In this document: positions 1,419 to 14,713 of the stretch, piece after piece
How the letters are laid out: each line of letters opens with the position of its first letter
Numbering within the stretch: position 1 is the first letter of the stretch
Origin: a virus
Taxonomy: Duplodnaviria > Heunggongvirae > Uroviricota > Caudoviricetes
DNA length: 30,147 nt
IMG/VR virus record: IMGVR_UViG_2778261179_000014
Span: 1 to 30,147 of that record
Reading direction: 5' to 3' (one strand)
The notes under the pieces: model-generated
Databases searched by the model: none
Told to the model about the DNA's origin: nothing
What the model saw: the letters and a program-made list of their open reading frames with translations, nothing else
Program-made: the position numbers and the translations under genes

Positions 1419-3860
1419 TTAAAAATCAGCCTGACTCGGGATCAGTTTTTGCCAGATAGCTGAAACGTATTTTGCCTGGTAACGAGCGTCATCAAGTGCA
1501 TTATGGCGCTCACCTTCGAATGGAATAGCCGTTCTGGCATCGAAGTCTATGGCTTTCCCCAGCTCAACGATTGTGCGTACATCGCGATCGTTGTAGTAAC
1601 GCCACGGGCAGGGGATCCCCTGCCGTTCGTATGAACGGCGCAAAATCGTGTTGTCGAAGTTGGCTCCATTTCCCCAGACCTGAACAAAAAATTCACCGGA
1701 GTTTTCGTCGATAAATTCCCGCAATTGTAACAGTGCATCATCTAACGGGATTTCATCGGTCATAATGGCAGATTGCGCTTCGCGTGATTGCTTAAGCCAC
1801 CATTTAATGGTGTCCCGATCAATGACTCCGCCAGCAGTTTCCAGATCGATAGTCTTACTAAATTCCGGTCCCATATCTCCGGTTTGCGGATCGAAAAATA
1901 TTGCACCTATTGAGATGATCGGGGCATCAGGATTTTTTCCCATGGTTTCAAGGTCGATCATTAGATGGTCACACGTCCTGCTGGTGGATGTGATTTCGCG
2001 ATGACCGTTCACCTTAATTGAGTGATCTGCCGTCTCGCCAGTTTTATTATCGCTGGCGTGATGCTGATTGCCGCCAGGGTTCTCCTTGTGTGGATGTTCA
2101 GCGCCTTCCATTTCCTCCGGATCATTTTCCTGAACTTCAACCTGATTCTCTTCATCGAATGTTTCCTGGTATGTTGCGTCGCCCATCACCGCGCCACAAT
2201 CAGGGCAGTTGCCGCCACCGCTTTGACCGCAGGCGGTGCAGACTTTTTCCGGTTCCTGTTGCGCTACTGGTTCGGATTGTTTCGTTTCTGGCTCGTTTTG
2301 TAACGCATTTGGGCTGTTTTGTTCCGCTTTTTGGTCGTTCCGTTCCGATTCATGCTGGTTCTGGTTCACAGAATCGCGAGTCTGGATCCCCTTGACCCAT
2401 TTCGGATCATTAGGGTCGCTAATCCCCTCAACAAATTCACCACGCGATACAGCAAGTAACTTATCGGCGTCAGGCTGGCTGATATTGGCTGCCTGCATAA
2501 TTTTGTTTACTTCGTCAGCGGTGACTTTTACTTGGTTAGCGGAACTCACCTGCGACTGAGCATCCAGCGACTGCGCGTTCTGGCCATGTTCAGTTGTATC
2601 CGGTTCCATTGTTTCAGTTGTTGCCTGTTCACCTGCCATTGCGTCAGATGGTTGTGGTTTTTCTTCTTCTGTTTCACGCTTAGTAACCACCTCGCGGTTA
2701 ATTTCTTCCAGGATATCTTTTTCCGGCGTATGCCGGGCAGCTGTGAGAATTTCCTTGCTGGGGTTCTCGTGATCAGTTTCCGTCAAATAGGCGTTGATAT
2801 ACCCCTGAAGGCGTCCCGGGTAGTGATAAAATTCAGGGTGTGCGCTTCGGATAAGTGCAAAAATAGCGGCGCGGGAATAGTCCAGAATACCCGGGGTTGC
2901 ACGAAGTGCTGCGGACCATTCTTTGAACGGACTTTCTTTGTTCAGGACTACTTCTTTTGCGCGACGATAAACGCTGCCCGGAATTTCATAAATATTAAAA
3001 TCCATCGGAAGTGTGGCTGCTGCAATCTCCACATCCAGTGTGTCGAGGGTGTGTACTAAATTCGGATTGCGATCGGTTTTGTTCCCACCGCCAGCATTAG
3101 CACCGGAAGCCGTGCGGGTGATGCGTGAAACACGATTTCCTTTCATCCACTCTTTTGTCAGCAGACCCCGATCAGTGTAGTCAGCGTCCAGGTATGCTTC
3201 GAAAAAAGCAGTTATTAGTCCCAAGTCTGAATTACTAGGATTAGGGAAAACTTTGTCAGTGTCACGAACCAGTTTGTGGAGGTCGCGAATCTCCAGCGAG
3301 TCGAGCAGACTGGTTTTATGCGAAATAGCCAGGGCAGTAACAGCCGGTAGTTCTTCAGCCCGTGCAATGTGTAATGCCTGGAGTTCGTCGCGTGAAACGT
3401 GCGTTACTGGTTTTTCGCTGCCGTGTTGAGCAAGCCAACGAATGGGCAGTTCCTGACCGGAGACAGGCAGAAGCATGCTCTCCTCAATCTCAGTCATGTC
3501 TTCGCCGTTGATGTTGGTATTGTCAGTGCTAGCTGGTTTGCCCTGAACAGAGGGGGAAGGGCCGATAAATGTCATTGTGATGCCATCTTTCCCGCCTTTT
3601 TCATAGCGGTTGCAGAATTCAGTATCAAACACGCCTTCTGGCGGAAGGTCGTCAACAACGGGCAAATTGACGCGGACGGGTTTTTTAAAGTCGTCTTCAT
3701 CATAATCGTTGTCATCCATTGCGGTAATGCAGCGGGAGATTGCAACAGATAATTTTTTTGCTGTAGTCCAGTAAAAACCACCTTTAATTCCCAGGCGTTT
3801 TCTTACTTTGTCATTTTTTGCTTCGCAATATAGTGCAAATTCTTCTTTATCAGTGCTCAT
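1419..3860 (-). CDS. Large exonuclease with C-terminal DnaQ-like DEDDh 3'-5' exonuclease domain
   Basis: 813 aa. C-terminal about 200 aa carry Exo I (MIDLETMG), Exo II ([12 protein letters not shown]) and Exo III (HNALDDARY) motifs. Long acidic, low-complexity N-terminal region with a CxxC..CxxC cluster ([16 protein letters not shown]). Proteins of this architecture in E. coli prophages are often annotated exodeoxyribonuclease VIII-like; that is from memory and unverified. Confidence 0.8.
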
Positions 3861-7664: not shown

Positions 7665-7735
7665 CTCGCAATATTCATACCGGATCACTTCCGGCAATTT
7701 GTGAGTAAAAAGATTCGGTATCAAAAGAGGTGAGT

Positions 7736-8806
7736 ATGGCTAACGCCTGGCTCAGATTATGGCATGACATGCCAAATGACCCTAAGTGGCGAACAATTGC
7801 CAGGGTGTCAGGGCAGCCAATTGCAACAGTGATGGCAGTGTATATCCACCTATTGGTGAGCGCGTCACGAAATGTCACGCGAGGTCACATTGATGTCACG
7901 ACAGAAGATTTGGCAAGTGCGCTCGACGTGACAGAAGAGGTAATTGATTCAATTTTACAGACGATGCAGGGGCGGGTACTTGATGGTGATTTAATCACTG
8001 GATGGGAAAAACGCCAGGTGCTTAAAGAGGACAACGGCAATATTTCGCAAACCGCAAAATCTCCTGCAGAGCGCAAGAGGGCGCAGCGAGAGAGGGAAAG
8101 AAAGCGGGAACAAAATGGCGATTGTCACGGCGCGTCACGAAATGTCACGCACATGTCACGACAAGTCACGACAGATACAGATACAGAGAAAGATACAGAT
8201 CAAGAAGATCAAAACACTATGGTCCATGGCGTAAAAAACGCCACGAACCAGGCAGGGGATGTTCAGACCGTCAATCCTGGTCAGCCAGCAGGCACGACAC
8301 CGGAAGCCGATTCAGCGTATGCGCTGAAAGCCGATTCGGGCGCTGTGCAGCAGGTGATGACCGCAAGGCCGGAGCAATCACACCAACTGCAGCAGCCTGA
8401 AGCCGATTCCGCCATTCAGCGGGAAGCCGATCGGGTAGTCCCGGAAAACACCGGGCAGTCTGTGGGACGAGTGGATTATCCGGATGTGTTCGAACAGGTC
8501 TGGCGGGAGTACCCGTTGCGTGCCGGAGCAAACCCGAAGAAATCCGCTTTCAGTGCCTGGAAGGCCAGATTACGCGAGGGGGTGCCACCAGAGGCCATGC
8601 TGGATGGCGTGAGGCGTTACGCAAGATACCTGGCGGCTACCGGGAAAACGGGAACGGAATTTGTTCAGCGAGCGACGACGTTTTTTGGACCGGACCGGAA
8701 TTTTGAGAACCCCTGGTTGCTCCCGGTAAGCGGCACGAACAACCAGCGTTGTGTGAATCATATTTCTGAACCGGATAACGAAATTCCGCCGGGCTTCAGG
8801 GGGTAA
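7736..8806 (+). CDS. Replication initiation / replisome organizer protein (O-like) with internal origin iterons
   Basis: About 356 aa from ATG 7736 (GAGGTG upstream); two iteron clusters lie inside the coding sequence; low-complexity central linker; position after the cro/cII-like genes. Confidence 0.7.
   Translation: MANAWLRLWHDMPNDPKWRTIARVSGQPIATVMAVYIHLLVSASRNVTRGHIDVTTEDLASALDVTEEVIDSILQTMQGRVLDGDLITGWEKRQVLKEDNGNISQTAKSPAERKRAQRERERKREQNGDCHGASRNVTHMSRQVTTDTDTEKDTDQEDQNTMVHGVKNATNQAGDVQTVNPGQPAGTTPEADSAYALKADSGAVQQVMTARPEQSHQLQQPEADSAIQREADRVVPENTGQSVGRVDYPDVFEQVWREYPLRAGANPKKSAFSAWKARLREGVPPEAMLDGVRRYARYLAATGKTGTEFVQRATTFFGPDRNFENPWLLPVSGTNNQRCVNHISEPDNEIPPGFRG
7861..7900. repeat. Iteron cluster 1 (GTCACG-type repeats at about 10-bp phasing)
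   Basis: GTCAC(G/A) at 7864, 7874, 7884 and 7895; the 20-mer CGCGTCACGAAATGTCACGC is repeated exactly at 8131-8150. Confidence 0.6.
8124..8200. repeat. Iteron cluster 2 plus GATACA repeats (putative replication origin)
   Basis: GTCACG at 8124, 8134, 8144, 8155 and 8165 (9-11 bp phasing), followed by (A)GATACAG x3-4 at 8171-8200. Confidence 0.6.
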
Positions 8807-8846: not shown

Positions 8847-9269
8847 GTGGCAAAAGTTTTTACACAAGAAGAGCGGGAAAAAATTAAAGGGCAGGTTCTT
8901 GAACTCGTACGCCAGAGTGGGCGCGAGACGTTACGACAACTGGAAGCTAAAACTGGGGCAACAAGATATCTGATGAGCGTTCTGGCCAGAGAGCTGGTTG
9001 CCAGTGGCGATGTATACAACTCTGGTTACGGGTTATTCCCGTCTGAACAGGCTCGTAAAGACTGGCAAAATGCCCGCAAAAAATTATCGAGGGCAAAGCT
9101 GAAGAAACCGGTTGTGGTTGATCCGGACCTTATCTGGTCATTACCTGACGGAGAAATACGTCGCTACGACAGTCGCCTAAACATAATCTGTCGCGAGTGC
9201 CGGAAGAGCGAAGTTATGCAGCGCATATTGTCGTTTTATCAGGGGGATGTTCGGTATTTATTGAAGTGA
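8847..9269 (+). CDS. Hypothetical protein with HTH-like N-terminus
   Basis: 140 aa from GTG 8847 with AGGAGGG RBS; sits where a helicase loader would be expected but is too small and shows no Walker motifs. Confidence 0.5.
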   Translation: MAKVFTQEEREKIKGQVLELVRQSGRETLRQLEAKTGATRYLMSVLARELVASGDVYNSGYGLFPSEQARKDWQNARKKLSRAKLKKPVVVDPDLIWSLPDGEIRRYDSRLNIICRECRKSEVMQRILSFYQGDVRYLLK

Positions 9270-9513
9270 CGAGATTAAAGTGCATTAGTTCAGATGCAAA
9301 TTGACATTTTGTGGCACAGGGTAGAGCTAGCGTGGTTGTCCGCTTTGTGCCAAAAGCAGAACTTGCTTACATTGTGCTATGTTAATTTGTTGGGAGCAGG
9401 TCACAAAGTCCAGCCAGGACGAAAATAAATAATTGCCATACATTTAGTGTTGATTATTTCGGGATTGTTCATCTATTCTGATTGTATCAGCGAGCAGGCC
9501 GGAGTCACTCTTC

Positions 9514-9738
9514 GTGGATCATCCCATACTTCAGAAAACAATCGTTCTCTTTATTCTTGCCCTATGGGTAATTGATCCATTCAGGACAAAGAGCAGAAAG
9601 CATACTGAATCCACCATTGAAGAAGCCGATGCCAGAGAACGTCATAAATGGCGATATCTCAGATGGGGAGTGCGAACAATACAAATTGCAGCGACAGTAT
9701 ATATGTTTGCTATGCTGATTCAGTTTTTACTGAAGTAG
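9514..9738 (+). CDS. Possible small membrane protein
   Basis: 74 aa from GTG; two hydrophobic segments (TIVLFILALWVIDPF, IQIAATVYMFAMLIQFLL); no convincing RBS. Confidence 0.25.
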   Translation: MDHPILQKTIVLFILALWVIDPFRTKSRKHTESTIEEADARERHKWRYLRWGVRTIQIAATVYMFAMLIQFLLK

Positions 9739-10516
9739 ACGGCTCAGGCAGGTACGACCGGACGGAATTGGCAGCCAATTCAGCGGAGGCCGGACGGGGT
9801 TAAACGTCCCCTCTGTGCCAGTGACCTGCTCCTCGTTGATTCACACGGAAGGCTGTTAGAAATGTGCAATTTTTGCTCACAGCAGACTGTAAGAGTTGAT
9901 TGTGTGTTGCACTGTGAGATCAAATCAAAACCAATATATTCAGGCATCTTCCCACAGCGCCCCCCATTCAACAGGCAATTGCTCCTTATCAAATCCCTCA
10001 AACCAGTAAACACTACTTTTTGCCCAACAATAGGCACTTCTCCCCAACCCTAATGAAACAATGCGCGACTCCAGTCCGGCTTGAGACGACCATGCCGTTT
10101 AAGGCGCACACCATTACAAGCAGTTGCTCATATTGAGGGAAAGTTAATAAAGAAACTTAACGGCATTTCCTCTTTTGCGCACGTTTCAATTGCCTTGATA
10201 TCCAGTCTTGGTTACGTTTGCGAATTTTTTGTTTCATTGGCTACTGTTCTGATTCGACTCACTTATTAATCAATGATCTTACTGTATTCCAACGCCATGC
10301 TTTGTACAGGAATGTCCGCTTTTCGCTCAAAGCGGACTAGAAGGTTAGCTTGCGTCGGACTTGGCGTATTTAAAGAAGTGCTGGTGGTGACTGGTTGTTG
10401 TGTTCCATTTCTACAGAACAAAATCACAGAAACTATACCCAATAGTTGTATCTCATCAATGATGAGACAGCCTCATATTTATCAGGACTGGTGTACGTCC
10501 AATACAGGAGGTTGTC

Positions 10517-10606
10517 GTGCTGGTTCTCAAATGTGCGCTGGCTATTGCAGCTGTAATGGCAATTTATTGTCTTGCTGTTGTTCTTATGGATCGCCTTTCT
10601 GATTGA
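10517..10606 (+). CDS. Candidate 29-aa hydrophobic peptide (possible type I toxin-like small protein)
   Basis: AGGAGG (10506-10511), 5 nt spacer, GTG 10517; hand-translated VLVLKCALAIAAVMAIYCLAVVLMDRLSD, stop TGA 10604-10606; lies just upstream of the hok leader. Below the track size cutoff. Confidence 0.3.
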   Translation: MLVLKCALAIAAVMAIYCLAVVLMDRLSD

Positions 10607-10760
10607 TTTTATATTGGCGAGGTAACGGGAGTTAAGTAGAATGGCTGCGGGTGCTTGAGGCTATCTGTCTCAGGCATGAACACCAAAGGCAGATAGAGAA
10701 AAGCCCCAGTTAACATTACGCGTCCTGCAAGACGCTTAACATTAATCTGAGGCTCAATCT

Positions 10761-10973
10761 ATGAACGGCAAATCTAGGTTAGCCTCTTACGTGCCGAAAG
10801 GCAAGGAGAAGCAGGCTATGAAGCAGCAAAAGGCGATGTTAGTCGCCCTGATCGTCATCTGTTTAACCGTCATTGTGACGGCACTGGTAACGAGGAAAGA
10901 CCTCTGCGAGGTACGAATCCGAACCGGCCAGACGGAGGTCGCTGTCTTCACAGCTTACGAACCTGAGGAGTAA
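10761..10973 (+). CDS. Mok-like upstream reading frame of the hok locus
   Basis: 70-aa ORF that includes the hok frame with a 19-codon N-terminal extension from ATG 10761. Confidence 0.4.
   Translation: MNGKSRLASYVPKGKEKQAMKQQKAMLVALIVICLTVIVTALVTRKDLCEVRIRTGQTEVAVFTAYEPEE
10818..10973 (+). CDS. hokD: Hok/Gef-family type I toxin (HokD/RelF-like, 51 aa)
   Basis: MKQQKAMLVALIVICLTVIVTALVTRKDLCEVRIRTGQTEVAVFTAYEPEE; AAGGAG RBS 9 nt upstream; single TM segment plus the conserved C and Y. Close match to my recollection of E. coli HokD. Confidence 0.85.
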   Translation: MKQQKAMLVALIVICLTVIVTALVTRKDLCEVRIRTGQTEVAVFTAYEPEE

Positions 10974-11042
10974 GAGACCTGGCGGGGGAGAAATCCCTCG
11001 CCACCTCTGATGTGTCAGGCATCCTCAACGCACCCGCACTTA

Positions 11043-11062
11043 ACCCGCTTCGGCGTTTTTTC
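11043..11062 (+). terminator. Putative 3' hairpin / terminator of the hok mRNA
   Basis: CGC-TTCG-GCG short hairpin followed by TTTTTT; preceded by GCATCCTCAACGCACC, which could pair with the 5' leader GGTGCTTGAGGC (fold-back element). Confidence 0.4.
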
Positions 11063-11116: not shown

Positions 11117-11509
11117 ATGAAGAAACTTGTTTTAGTCGCAGGTGTAATGATTGCAACAGTAATGTTGGGAGGGTGTGCAGCAAAGGTCGATCCAGCGTTG
11201 AAAGCAGAAGCAATGAAGCCACTAACATGTAATGATGAAAAGCAATGTGACTTTTATTGGAAACGAGCGCAATTCTGGTTGGCTAATAATTCCTCATGGA
11301 AAATTCAAACGGCGACAGACACGCTAATTTCCACTTATAATCCCTCTCCAAATAGTCCATTCCTCGCTTATCAAGTGAGTAAAATGCCAAATGAAGATGG
11401 ATCCTCAAGAATTTTCATCAAGCCTTTTTGCGATAATATGTTTGGCTGTCAACCAAACCCCTATCAGGCAGTTGTTTCCTTTAAAAACTTCGTTAAAACA
11501 GGGCAGTAG
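11117..11509 (+). CDS. Lipoprotein of unknown function (moron)
   Basis: 130 aa; GGGAG RBS; signal peptide ending in lipobox LGGC (MKKLVLVAGVMIATVMLGGC); several Cys in the mature part; followed by a strong terminator. Confidence 0.75.
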   Translation: MKKLVLVAGVMIATVMLGGCAAKVDPALKAEAMKPLTCNDEKQCDFYWKRAQFWLANNSSWKIQTATDTLISTYNPSPNSPFLAYQVSKMPNEDGSSRIFIKPFCDNMFGCQPNPYQAVVSFKNFVKTGQ

Positions 11510-14284: not shown

Positions 14285-14365
14285 TGCCACTTATCTCGGA
14301 TAGACATGGTGAATGCGCTGGTGGAGGAGGTAAGGGTGATTTTTAACCAGGTGATTTTTGAATGC

Positions 14366-14394
14366 TTGCAACATTGATTTCGTAACGTTATTAT
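14366..14394 (+). promoter_or_regulatory. Sigma70-like promoter upstream of the tRNA cluster
   Basis: TTGCAA (14366-14371), 17 nt spacer, TATTAT (14389-14394); predicted start about 14401, just before the first tRNA at 14404. Confidence 0.5.
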
Positions 14395-14403
14395 GCTGCG
14401 CCC

Positions 14404-14479
14404 GGCCCTTTAGCTCAGTGGTGAGAGCGAGCGACTCATAATCGCCAGGTCGCTGGTTCAAATCCAGCAAGGGCCACCA
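14404..14479 (+). tRNA. tRNA with anticodon CAU, Ile2 (lysidine)-like
   Basis: Hand-folded cloverleaf: acceptor GGCCCTT/AAGGGCC, D-stem GCTC/GAGC, anticodon loop CTCATAA, T-arm GCTGG-TTCAAAT-CCAGC, encoded CCA. Resembles E. coli ileX from memory. Confidence 0.8.
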
Positions 14480-14480
14480 A

Positions 14481-14557
14481 CCGCCACTAGCTCATCAGGA
14501 AAGAGCGTCAACCCTTTAAGTTGAGTGTGCGAGGTTCGAGTCCCCGGTGGCGGTCCA
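14481..14557 (+). tRNA. tRNA-like gene with atypical anticodon loop CCTTTAA (anticodon UUU, Lys-type, isotype uncertain)
   Basis: Acceptor CCGCCAC/GTGGCGG (7 bp, C1-G72), D-stem GCTC/GAGC, anticodon stem TCAAC/GTTGA, T-arm CGAGG-TTCGAGT-CCCCG with one A-C mismatch, encoded CCA. Position 33 is C rather than the near-universal U. Confidence 0.55.
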
Positions 14558-14559
14558 GT

Positions 14560-14635
<76 letters not shown>

Positions 14636-14638
14636 TAT

Positions 14639-14713
<75 letters not shown>

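Follow-up and report, generated by a model that had tools for sequence, protein, structure and literature searches.

The closest described counterparts of the element analyzed here include two kinds of very small protein. Type I toxins, among them TisB, ZorO, ShoB, DinQ, Ibs, Ldr and Hok/Gef, are peptides of about 20–50 residues with a hydrophobic helix and a short charged end, and they are often carried by prophages. Small membrane proteins of Escherichia coli, such as AcrZ, MgtS, MgrB, KdpF, CydX and PmrR, have at most 50 residues, a single transmembrane (TM) helix and a strong ribosome-binding site; they are typically missed by annotation and are conserved mainly in their hydrophobic character. 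Here, we analyzed a 29-codon open reading frame (ORF) that resembles both groups in these respects. It lies on the plus strand (10517–10606) of a 30,147-nucleotide stretch, positions 1 to 30,147 of the virus record IMGVR_UViG_2778261179_000014, which is an E. coli lambdoid prophage and is called the window in the following. The ORF is the neighbour of a hok/mok/sok locus, and the original prediction, made from the letters of the window, had proposed a second small-toxin module or a regulatory leader peptide of hok. Our comparative analysis points to a different explanation: the ORF is probably a gene for a non-essential, non-toxin small membrane protein, which belongs to the backbone of lambdoid prophages and is adjacent to, but separate from, hok/sok.

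The ORF starts with GTG (10517–10519) and ends with TGA (10604–10606). The Shine-Dalgarno (SD) sequence AGGAGG is located at 10506–10511 on the same strand and is followed by the 5-nt spacer TTGTC and the start codon, so that SD and ORF together read acAGGAGGttgtcGTG in the window. The product is (M)LVLKCALAIAAVMAIYCLAVVLMDRLSD, with V or M at position 1. A TM helix is predicted at about residues 6–24, with K5 on its N-terminal side and the acidic/charged tail DRLSD behind it; the best 19-residue segment reaches −2.9 kcal/mol on the Hessa scale, which is a clear and strong TM helix prediction. Both the arrangement of AGGAGG, 5 nt, GTG and 29 codons and the single predicted TM helix with a short charged tail had been proposed in the original prediction, and both are confirmed. 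A longer version of the ORF is impossible because two in-frame stops are present at 10460–10465, and 10517 is the earliest start codon in the frame. The sequence AGGAGG occurs seven times on both strands of the window and is followed by a start codon after 4–9 nt in 3/7 cases, one of which is the real DUF977 gene. In 200 shuffled windows, AGGAGG with a start codon and an ORF of at least 25 amino acids (aa) appeared on average 1.4 times per shuffle, while no AGGAGG-led ORF of this length with an equally hydrophobic helix was obtained. An ORF with the SD, length and helix hydrophobicity of the 29-codon frame is thus not expected by chance.

The substitutions that separate its copies argue for a coding sequence. 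Among 28 distinct ORF haplotypes, the variable sites are distributed as 13, 9 and 20 over codon positions 1, 2 and 3. A synonymous test, limited to the 20 codons left free by the search pattern and evaluated with a transition/transversion-matched random model, counted 20 synonymous and 21 non-synonymous events, where 13.4 synonymous events were expected (Monte Carlo P = 0.006). In the two alternative frames, the synonymous events number 13 and 8, and six stops would arise in one of them. The non-synonymous changes are conservative, being A/V/T/I/L/M swaps in the helix in addition to K5T, C6G, D25E, R26H and L27F. Summed over seven lineages, pN/pS (Nei-Gojobori) is 0.39 in the ORF frame versus 0.52 and 1.03 in the off-frames, and it drops to 0.15–0.30 in the deepest pairs (10 synonymous and 4 non-synonymous changes between the window and locus L005; 13 and 7 between L005 and the Shigella virulence plasmid pINV). 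Diversity at position 3 (0.088–0.098) is at least that of the flanking non-coding DNA (0.066–0.072) and exceeds the diversity at positions 1 and 2 (0.03–0.05) two- to threefold. As judged from these patterns, the amino-acid sequence of the peptide, and not merely its translation, is under purifying selection.

The translation signals and the indels complement this picture. Among 140 related loci, the start codon is GTG in 135 and ATG in 3, and the SD core GGAG(G)/GGGAGG is kept in 137, with AGAAGA in one. Two independent 3-nt deletions within the ORF are in frame, and one 13-nt deletion removes the stop codon in two loci, extending the product to 35 aa. In the viral contigs L098 and L138, a 2-nt frameshift deletion coincides with a change of the SD from AGGAGG to AGAAAG and with extra substitutions, and the hok promoter and leader just downstream are still intact. 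This lineage looks like a pseudogene, the loss of the SD being what would be expected of a dead gene. In line with conservation, codon-position pattern and the retention of SD and start, the earlier suggestion that the ORF is a small hydrophobic peptide gene worth notice is well founded: counting the favoured explanation and a toxin function together, we consider it likely on these comparative data that the ORF is a real coding gene. Two other readings of the same DNA were rejected. An overlapping 109-aa ORF (10273–10602) is unconserved in its upstream part where the flanks differ, and the same substitutions give stops in one off-frame. The minus-strand ORFs annotated over the region in phage HannyBb are closed in the window.

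Next, we analyzed the distribution of the ORF. A 211-bp query around it matched 3060/5426 complete E. coli genomes, with at least 80% of the query covered in 1815, and four isolated phages carry the region (Tritos, Evi, mEp460_ev081 and HannyBb). A degenerate DNA pattern was scanned against one genome per bacterial species and against viral contigs. In the former set it was found only in Escherichia albertii, E. ruysiae and Shigella, besides one chance match and three contigs in metagenome-assembled genomes of unrelated genera, which are probably mis-binned; 119 viral contigs matched. A HMMER search of 1.84 billion representative proteins, with the 46-aa in-frame extension of the window sequence as query, returned nothing below about 75–80% identity. 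By the reach of these searches, the family is real but narrow and confined to Escherichia and Shigella. Within these limits the ORF is kept across prophages, phages and plasmids, so that it is conserved in homologous regions. The previous statement that it falls below annotation cutoffs holds for the near-identical genomes, in which RefSeq lacks a feature, but not for several other records. Exact copies in public protein sets are named only 'hypothetical protein', 'membrane protein' or 'uncharacterized protein'; among them are those of REL606 (ACT39199.1), BL21 (ACT43394.1) and BL21(DE3), a RefSeq MULTISPECIES entry on 650 contigs and UniProt A0A0M1UIT1. The variant of REL606/BL21(DE3) is MLVLKCTLAIVAVMAIYCLVIVLMDHLSD. 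Within the library of papers searched, none contains the 29-aa peptide, and the paper on hokW-sokW does not discuss upstream ORFs.

The surroundings of the ORF change from locus to locus. In 12 annotated loci that were aligned, the genes upstream of it vary, and homology to the window restarts, depending on the locus, at about 10310 or only about 45–65 nt before the start codon. Downstream, 102/119 classifiable loci run on into hok; the remaining 17 carry an intact ORF without hok, and their homology ends about 20 nt past the ORF stop. Here, hok is replaced by a TehB/DUF1971 gene on the opposite strand or, on pINV, by icsP. In mosaic lambdoid phage genomes, joints are typically found at gene boundaries. 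The comparison indicates that ORF, SD and a promoter-like element form an island of about 160 bp bracketed by mosaic joints, and the ORF itself most likely represents not cargo but backbone, which forms the constant right border of a slot for cargo exchange. The slot, which extends from the Ren-like/DUF977 gene to the 29-aa ORF (9270–10516 in the window), is also seen in L002–L012, L142 and L143 and is a hotspot of cargo exchange. Across prophages it holds QueH, SIR2 with an NTP pyrophosphatase, DUF2326, DUF4209, an acetyltransferase, an alpha/beta hydrolase and various hypothetical proteins; some of these domains are also seen in phage-defence systems.

A further setting is the Shigella virulence plasmid. 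Using the peptide as tblastn query, we found matches on 143 plasmids (124 from Shigella and 19 from E. coli), with 135 matches at 60–80% identity. The two plasmid copies that were examined are pINV-type virulence plasmids with an intact ORF upstream of icsP. On pWR100, the product is MLVLKGTLAIAAVMTIYCLIVVLMERFSD; it has an ATG start and AGGAGG at the same spacing and is encoded about 290 bp upstream of icsP. The ORF is followed there by a decayed stub of hok promoter and leader, and hok is gone. Compared with the window, the pINV ORF has no indels and 18% divergence (pS 0.38, pN 0.11), versus 26% divergence with 2 gap columns in the 90 nt upstream and 23% with 4 gap columns in the 100 nt downstream. 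As a separate observation, positions 3001–3190 of L013 (S. flexneri pWR100) contain a relic hok promoter, TTGGCG-18-TAGAAT, with about 80 nt of decayed hok leader, at about 200–290 bp upstream of icsP. Together with the intact ORF copy, these relics suggest that the upstream region of icsP derives from a lambdoid prophage fragment.

These distribution data also bear on a further explanation, namely that the ORF is not a gene and that the island is kept as DNA, for example as a recombination joint at the cargo-slot edge or as sequence upstream of the hok promoter, with frame and SD being fortuitous. In favour of this view, the copies are all close relatives of one another, cargo exchange has often truncated the ORF, which thus lies at a recombination joint, and RefSeq usually makes no call. 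Moreover, that the frame has stayed open says nothing here, since mutations in these codons seldom produce stops: under random mutation only 0.2 stops are expected, and 79% of simulations contain none. However, constraint on DNA predicts neither a three-base periodicity nor a synonymous excess in a single frame alone. It likewise does not predict that GTG and ATG are exchanged, that the SD is retained or that just the frameshifted lineage has lost it, and the island is kept where hok and its promoter have been lost. We therefore regard conservation as mere DNA as improbable.

Considering expression, a −10-like CATATT at 10474–10479 (+) is present in 132/140 loci and may be part of a promoter of the ORF. 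The putative −35 position (10451–10456, +) reads TTGAAT in 96, TTGAAG in 19 and TCTCAT in 12 of the 140 loci. In most loci, TTGAAT (or TTGAAG/TTGAGT), a 17-nt spacer and CATATT are located 66–37 nt before the ORF start, and TTGAAT-17-CATATT is kept where spacer and flanks have diverged, pINV included. TTGAAT/CATATT matches 8/12 consensus positions and is below the scan threshold, which makes its promoter function a matter of inference. Transcription is predicted to start near 10486, so that the leader would be about 30 nt long; it is predicted to be unstructured (fold z = −0.14) with an unsequestered SD. The window has TCTCAT in place of the −35, and the ORF's own promoter is therefore probably weak or dead here. 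The same replacement creates a perfect palindrome of 8 + 8 nt, TCTCATCA-a-TGATGAGA (10451–10467), which occupies the −35 place, is restricted to the window-type lineage (12/140 related loci) and could be a protein-binding site. The idea that it is a repeated operator was dropped, since it occurs once in the window. No plus-strand terminator was found in the interval from the DUF977 gene to the ORF, nor in that from the ORF to the hok start; therefore, read-through from the early operon could reach the ORF, and an ORF transcript would run into hok.

The neighbouring toxin locus has its own signals. The hok promoter TTGGCG-17-TAGAAT (10614–10642, +; −35 at 10614–10619, −10 at 10637–10642) is a 9/12 match, and the same site was found in L002. 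The hok/mok/sok locus extends over 10649–11062 (+), from the hok mRNA leader starting at about 10649 to the 3′ fold-back/terminator region, whose end at about 11062 was read from the sequence; the ORF list places mok at 10761–10973 (+) and hokD at 10818–10973 (+). Rfam RF01794 (sok/hok) scores 110 bits at 10649–10823, and hokD is annotated by RefSeq in matching genomes. From the ORF stop it is 7 nt to the hok −35 and about 43 nt to the start of the hok leader, a distance that had earlier been given as about 20 bp.

This proximity makes it conceivable that translating the ORF controls hok or downstream early genes, for instance by opposing Rho termination or through transcriptional interference with the hok promoter. 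With the ORF ending just before the hok −35 and no terminator between, its transcript would enter hok, which follows in the large majority of classifiable loci, and a weak terminator-like hairpin is present inside the ORF (10541–10560). Nevertheless, hok has its own promoter and is subject to well-known post-transcriptional control, an intact ORF without hok occurs in 17 loci including pINV, and the peptide sequence itself appears to be under purifying selection. The internal hairpin is within chance (1 found versus 2.1 expected), and no attenuator structure was detected. A function as leader peptide, the second role offered by the original prediction, fails because the ORF persists without hok, an attenuator is absent and the peptide sequence is selected; we consider it very unlikely.

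The other role offered was that of toxin in a second type I toxin-antitoxin module beside hok. The ORF would then encode a membrane-depolarising peptide, whose translation is restrained by an unrecognised antisense or divergent small RNA (sRNA). Its size, single TM helix and charged tail indeed resemble toxins of the TisB, ZorO, ShoB and DinQ type as these families are generally described, and it is located on a prophage beside a known type I system. Furthermore, the window has a minus-strand promoter-like site with a 9/12 match, TTAACT-18-TAAAAT (10635 to 10606), from which an antisense RNA covering the entire ORF would be transcribed. However, its −10 is TGAAAT or TGTAAT in most relatives, with loss of the conserved A at position 2, and its −35 lies within hok-specific sequence and is gone where hok is replaced. 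This unconserved site was the only one in simple scans, which found neither a minus-strand terminator nor an Rfam match in the ORF region. The predicted folds of the minus strand are no more stable than those of shuffled sequence (z = −1.5 and −0.9), and no direct repeat was detected that could pair in trans with a divergent sRNA. The short, unstructured leader with its strong, exposed SD is unlike known type I toxin mRNAs, and a candidate leader pairing is not kept in L006. A divergent sRNA at 10310–10427 (minus strand) was discarded as a candidate, as it neither folds significantly nor has a convincing terminator, and it is not complementary to the ORF mRNA.

Comparison with known small toxin families gave no match to Hok/Gef or other toxins. 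Searches of Pfam and NCBIfam (E up to 10) and PADLOC returned no match to the 29-aa peptide, and the best hit in PHROGs had E = 0.74. BLASTP of the peptide against the adjacent HokD gave no alignment at E up to 100. A relationship to Hok or a duplicated hok locus was rejected on this ground, since in addition no internal hok duplication was found and RF01794 occurs only at 10649–10823. Without a toxin-family match, a conserved antisense promoter or terminator, an Rfam RNA or a leader that hides the SD, the proposal of a second small-toxin module is not borne out, and we regard it as unlikely.

Several points weigh against the explanation that we favour, a small membrane protein gene of the prophage backbone. 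In the window, the putative −35 has been lost and about 1.2 kb of cargo, most of it non-coding, precedes the ORF; expression may therefore be low here. The ORF is dispensable, and about 1200 genomes hold only its last 7–10 codons, with indels, fused to other cargo, as in an O157-type locus and in a locus where the QueH cargo gene adjoins the stub. In K-12 MG1655, hokD is directly preceded by relE without any trace of the ORF, which applies to this locus only. Most searches for small proteins by ribosome profiling were done in K-12. The absence of the ORF from the K-12 hokD locus is probably the reason that it went unreported in K-12 small-protein surveys. Family libraries and protein searches gave no homolog of known function. 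Regarding selection, P = 0.006 is not overwhelming, one off-frame has a pN/pS of 0.52 versus 0.39 in the ORF frame, and the tests are based on few substitutions because the family is narrow, with relatives at least about 75% identical. Finally, one lineage has an Arg in mid-helix.

From these features we infer how the backbone gene would work. Ribosomes would load on the exposed, near-perfect SD and initiate at GTG, or at ATG in some lineages, on an mRNA that probably comes from the ORF's own weak promoter and/or from read-through of the early operon, which runs rightward in the same direction. With one hydrophobic helix at about residues 6–24 and a short acidic tail, the product should insert in the inner membrane. 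There, by analogy with other bacterial proteins of similar size, it would most likely pack against a larger membrane protein, or perturb the membrane at high dose, and so would serve a dispensable accessory function of the 'moron' type. A bolder version, which we consider doubtful, is that the peptide represents the first member of a new family of prophage peptides that are active in the membrane; it could be a toxin whose antisense partner is not recognisable, or a helix that modulates Hok or a host envelope protein. If this were true, the peptide would be maintained because of its own activity even on the Shigella virulence plasmid, where its gene lies in H-NS-silenced DNA upstream of icsP.

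The position of the ORF in the prophage is clear from the order of the genes. From left to right, the window contains DicF (with four tRNAs further right), a replication-initiator gene (7730–8806), the Ren-like/DUF977 gene (8847–9269) and the cargo of about 1.2 kb that is mostly non-coding; rightward from the ORF follow hokD/mok/sok, a lipoprotein-like gene, DUF968, RusA, Q, the lysis genes and terminase. These genes and the ORF all read rightward. Within the cargo, a 74-aa ORF (9514–9738, +) with two hydrophobic segments matches phrog_25496 over its full length (E 2e-23) and is unannotated in a 99%-identical RefSeq genome; it is probably another missed small membrane-protein gene. The cargo segment from about 9370 to 10310, i.e. 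from the DUF977 gene to the conserved block, is nearly whole in only 25/5426 E. coli genomes. It carries no annotated feature and no convincing gene besides the 74-aa ORF. The left boundary of the block shared with many prophages is marked by a hairpin, GTCCGCTTT-tcgctc-AAAGCGGAC (10316–10340); as no T-run follows on either strand, it does not obviously act as an intrinsic terminator. Beyond hok, a 130-aa ORF (11117–11509, +) has an N-terminus that resembles those of lipoproteins (…MLGGC); it is a full-length match to phrog_16082 and shows a weak match to the signal region of Cor-type exclusion proteins. The 74-aa ORF, the 29-aa ORF, Hok and the 130-aa ORF form a run of small envelope-directed genes. 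Another AGGAGG with a 5-nt spacer and GTG precedes a 13-codon ORF, VIFNQVIFECLQH (14325–14377, +), directly upstream of the four-tRNA array (14404–14710).

About one in three sequenced E. coli genomes carries the ORF, as do BL21(DE3), REL606 and the Shigella invasion plasmid, and it has gone unstudied. More and more very small membrane proteins are being recognized, and the ORF is a further case, one with evolutionary support. It also defines the constant right-hand border of a prophage slot with exchangeable cargo. It also calls for caution, as a hydrophobic mini-ORF beside a toxin locus need not be a second toxin. If an activity is found, the peptide could become a compact tool or target in the inner membrane.

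Compared with type I toxins, the ORF is further alike in that a bona fide hok/sok locus is less than 50 bp away. It differs in that its sequence is unrelated, no antisense or divergent RNA gene was detected, its predicted leader is short and unstructured with an exposed SD, and its tail is acidic instead of basic or polar. Relative to Hok/Gef (PF01848) in particular, the peptide has no profile match, and mok, sok and fold-back elements are missing around the ORF. With leader peptides it shares the very short ORF with a strong SD right in front of a gene under tight regulation, but there is no attenuator, hok is driven by a promoter of its own, the ORF is also retained where hok is missing and the peptide is conserved. 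The ORF resembles prophage morons that act on the host envelope, such as DicB, HK97 gp15 and Cor-type exclusion proteins, in its position in the accessory zone that separates the replication module from the Q module, in its promoter-like element and in its location among other small membrane or lipoprotein genes. As for the features of a moron, the ORF is variably present and has the conserved promoter-like TTGAAT-17-CATATT; it lacks its own terminator and is backbone-like at the slot edge. Moreover, it is several-fold smaller than DicB, HK97 gp15 and Cor-type proteins and has no homology to them. From AcrZ, MgtS, MgrB, KdpF, CydX and PmrR the ORF differs in being borne on a mobile element, limited to Escherichia and Shigella, dispensable and without a candidate partner in its operon. 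With small bacterial membrane proteins it shares a product of at most 50 aa, a single predicted TM helix and a credible ribosome-binding site.

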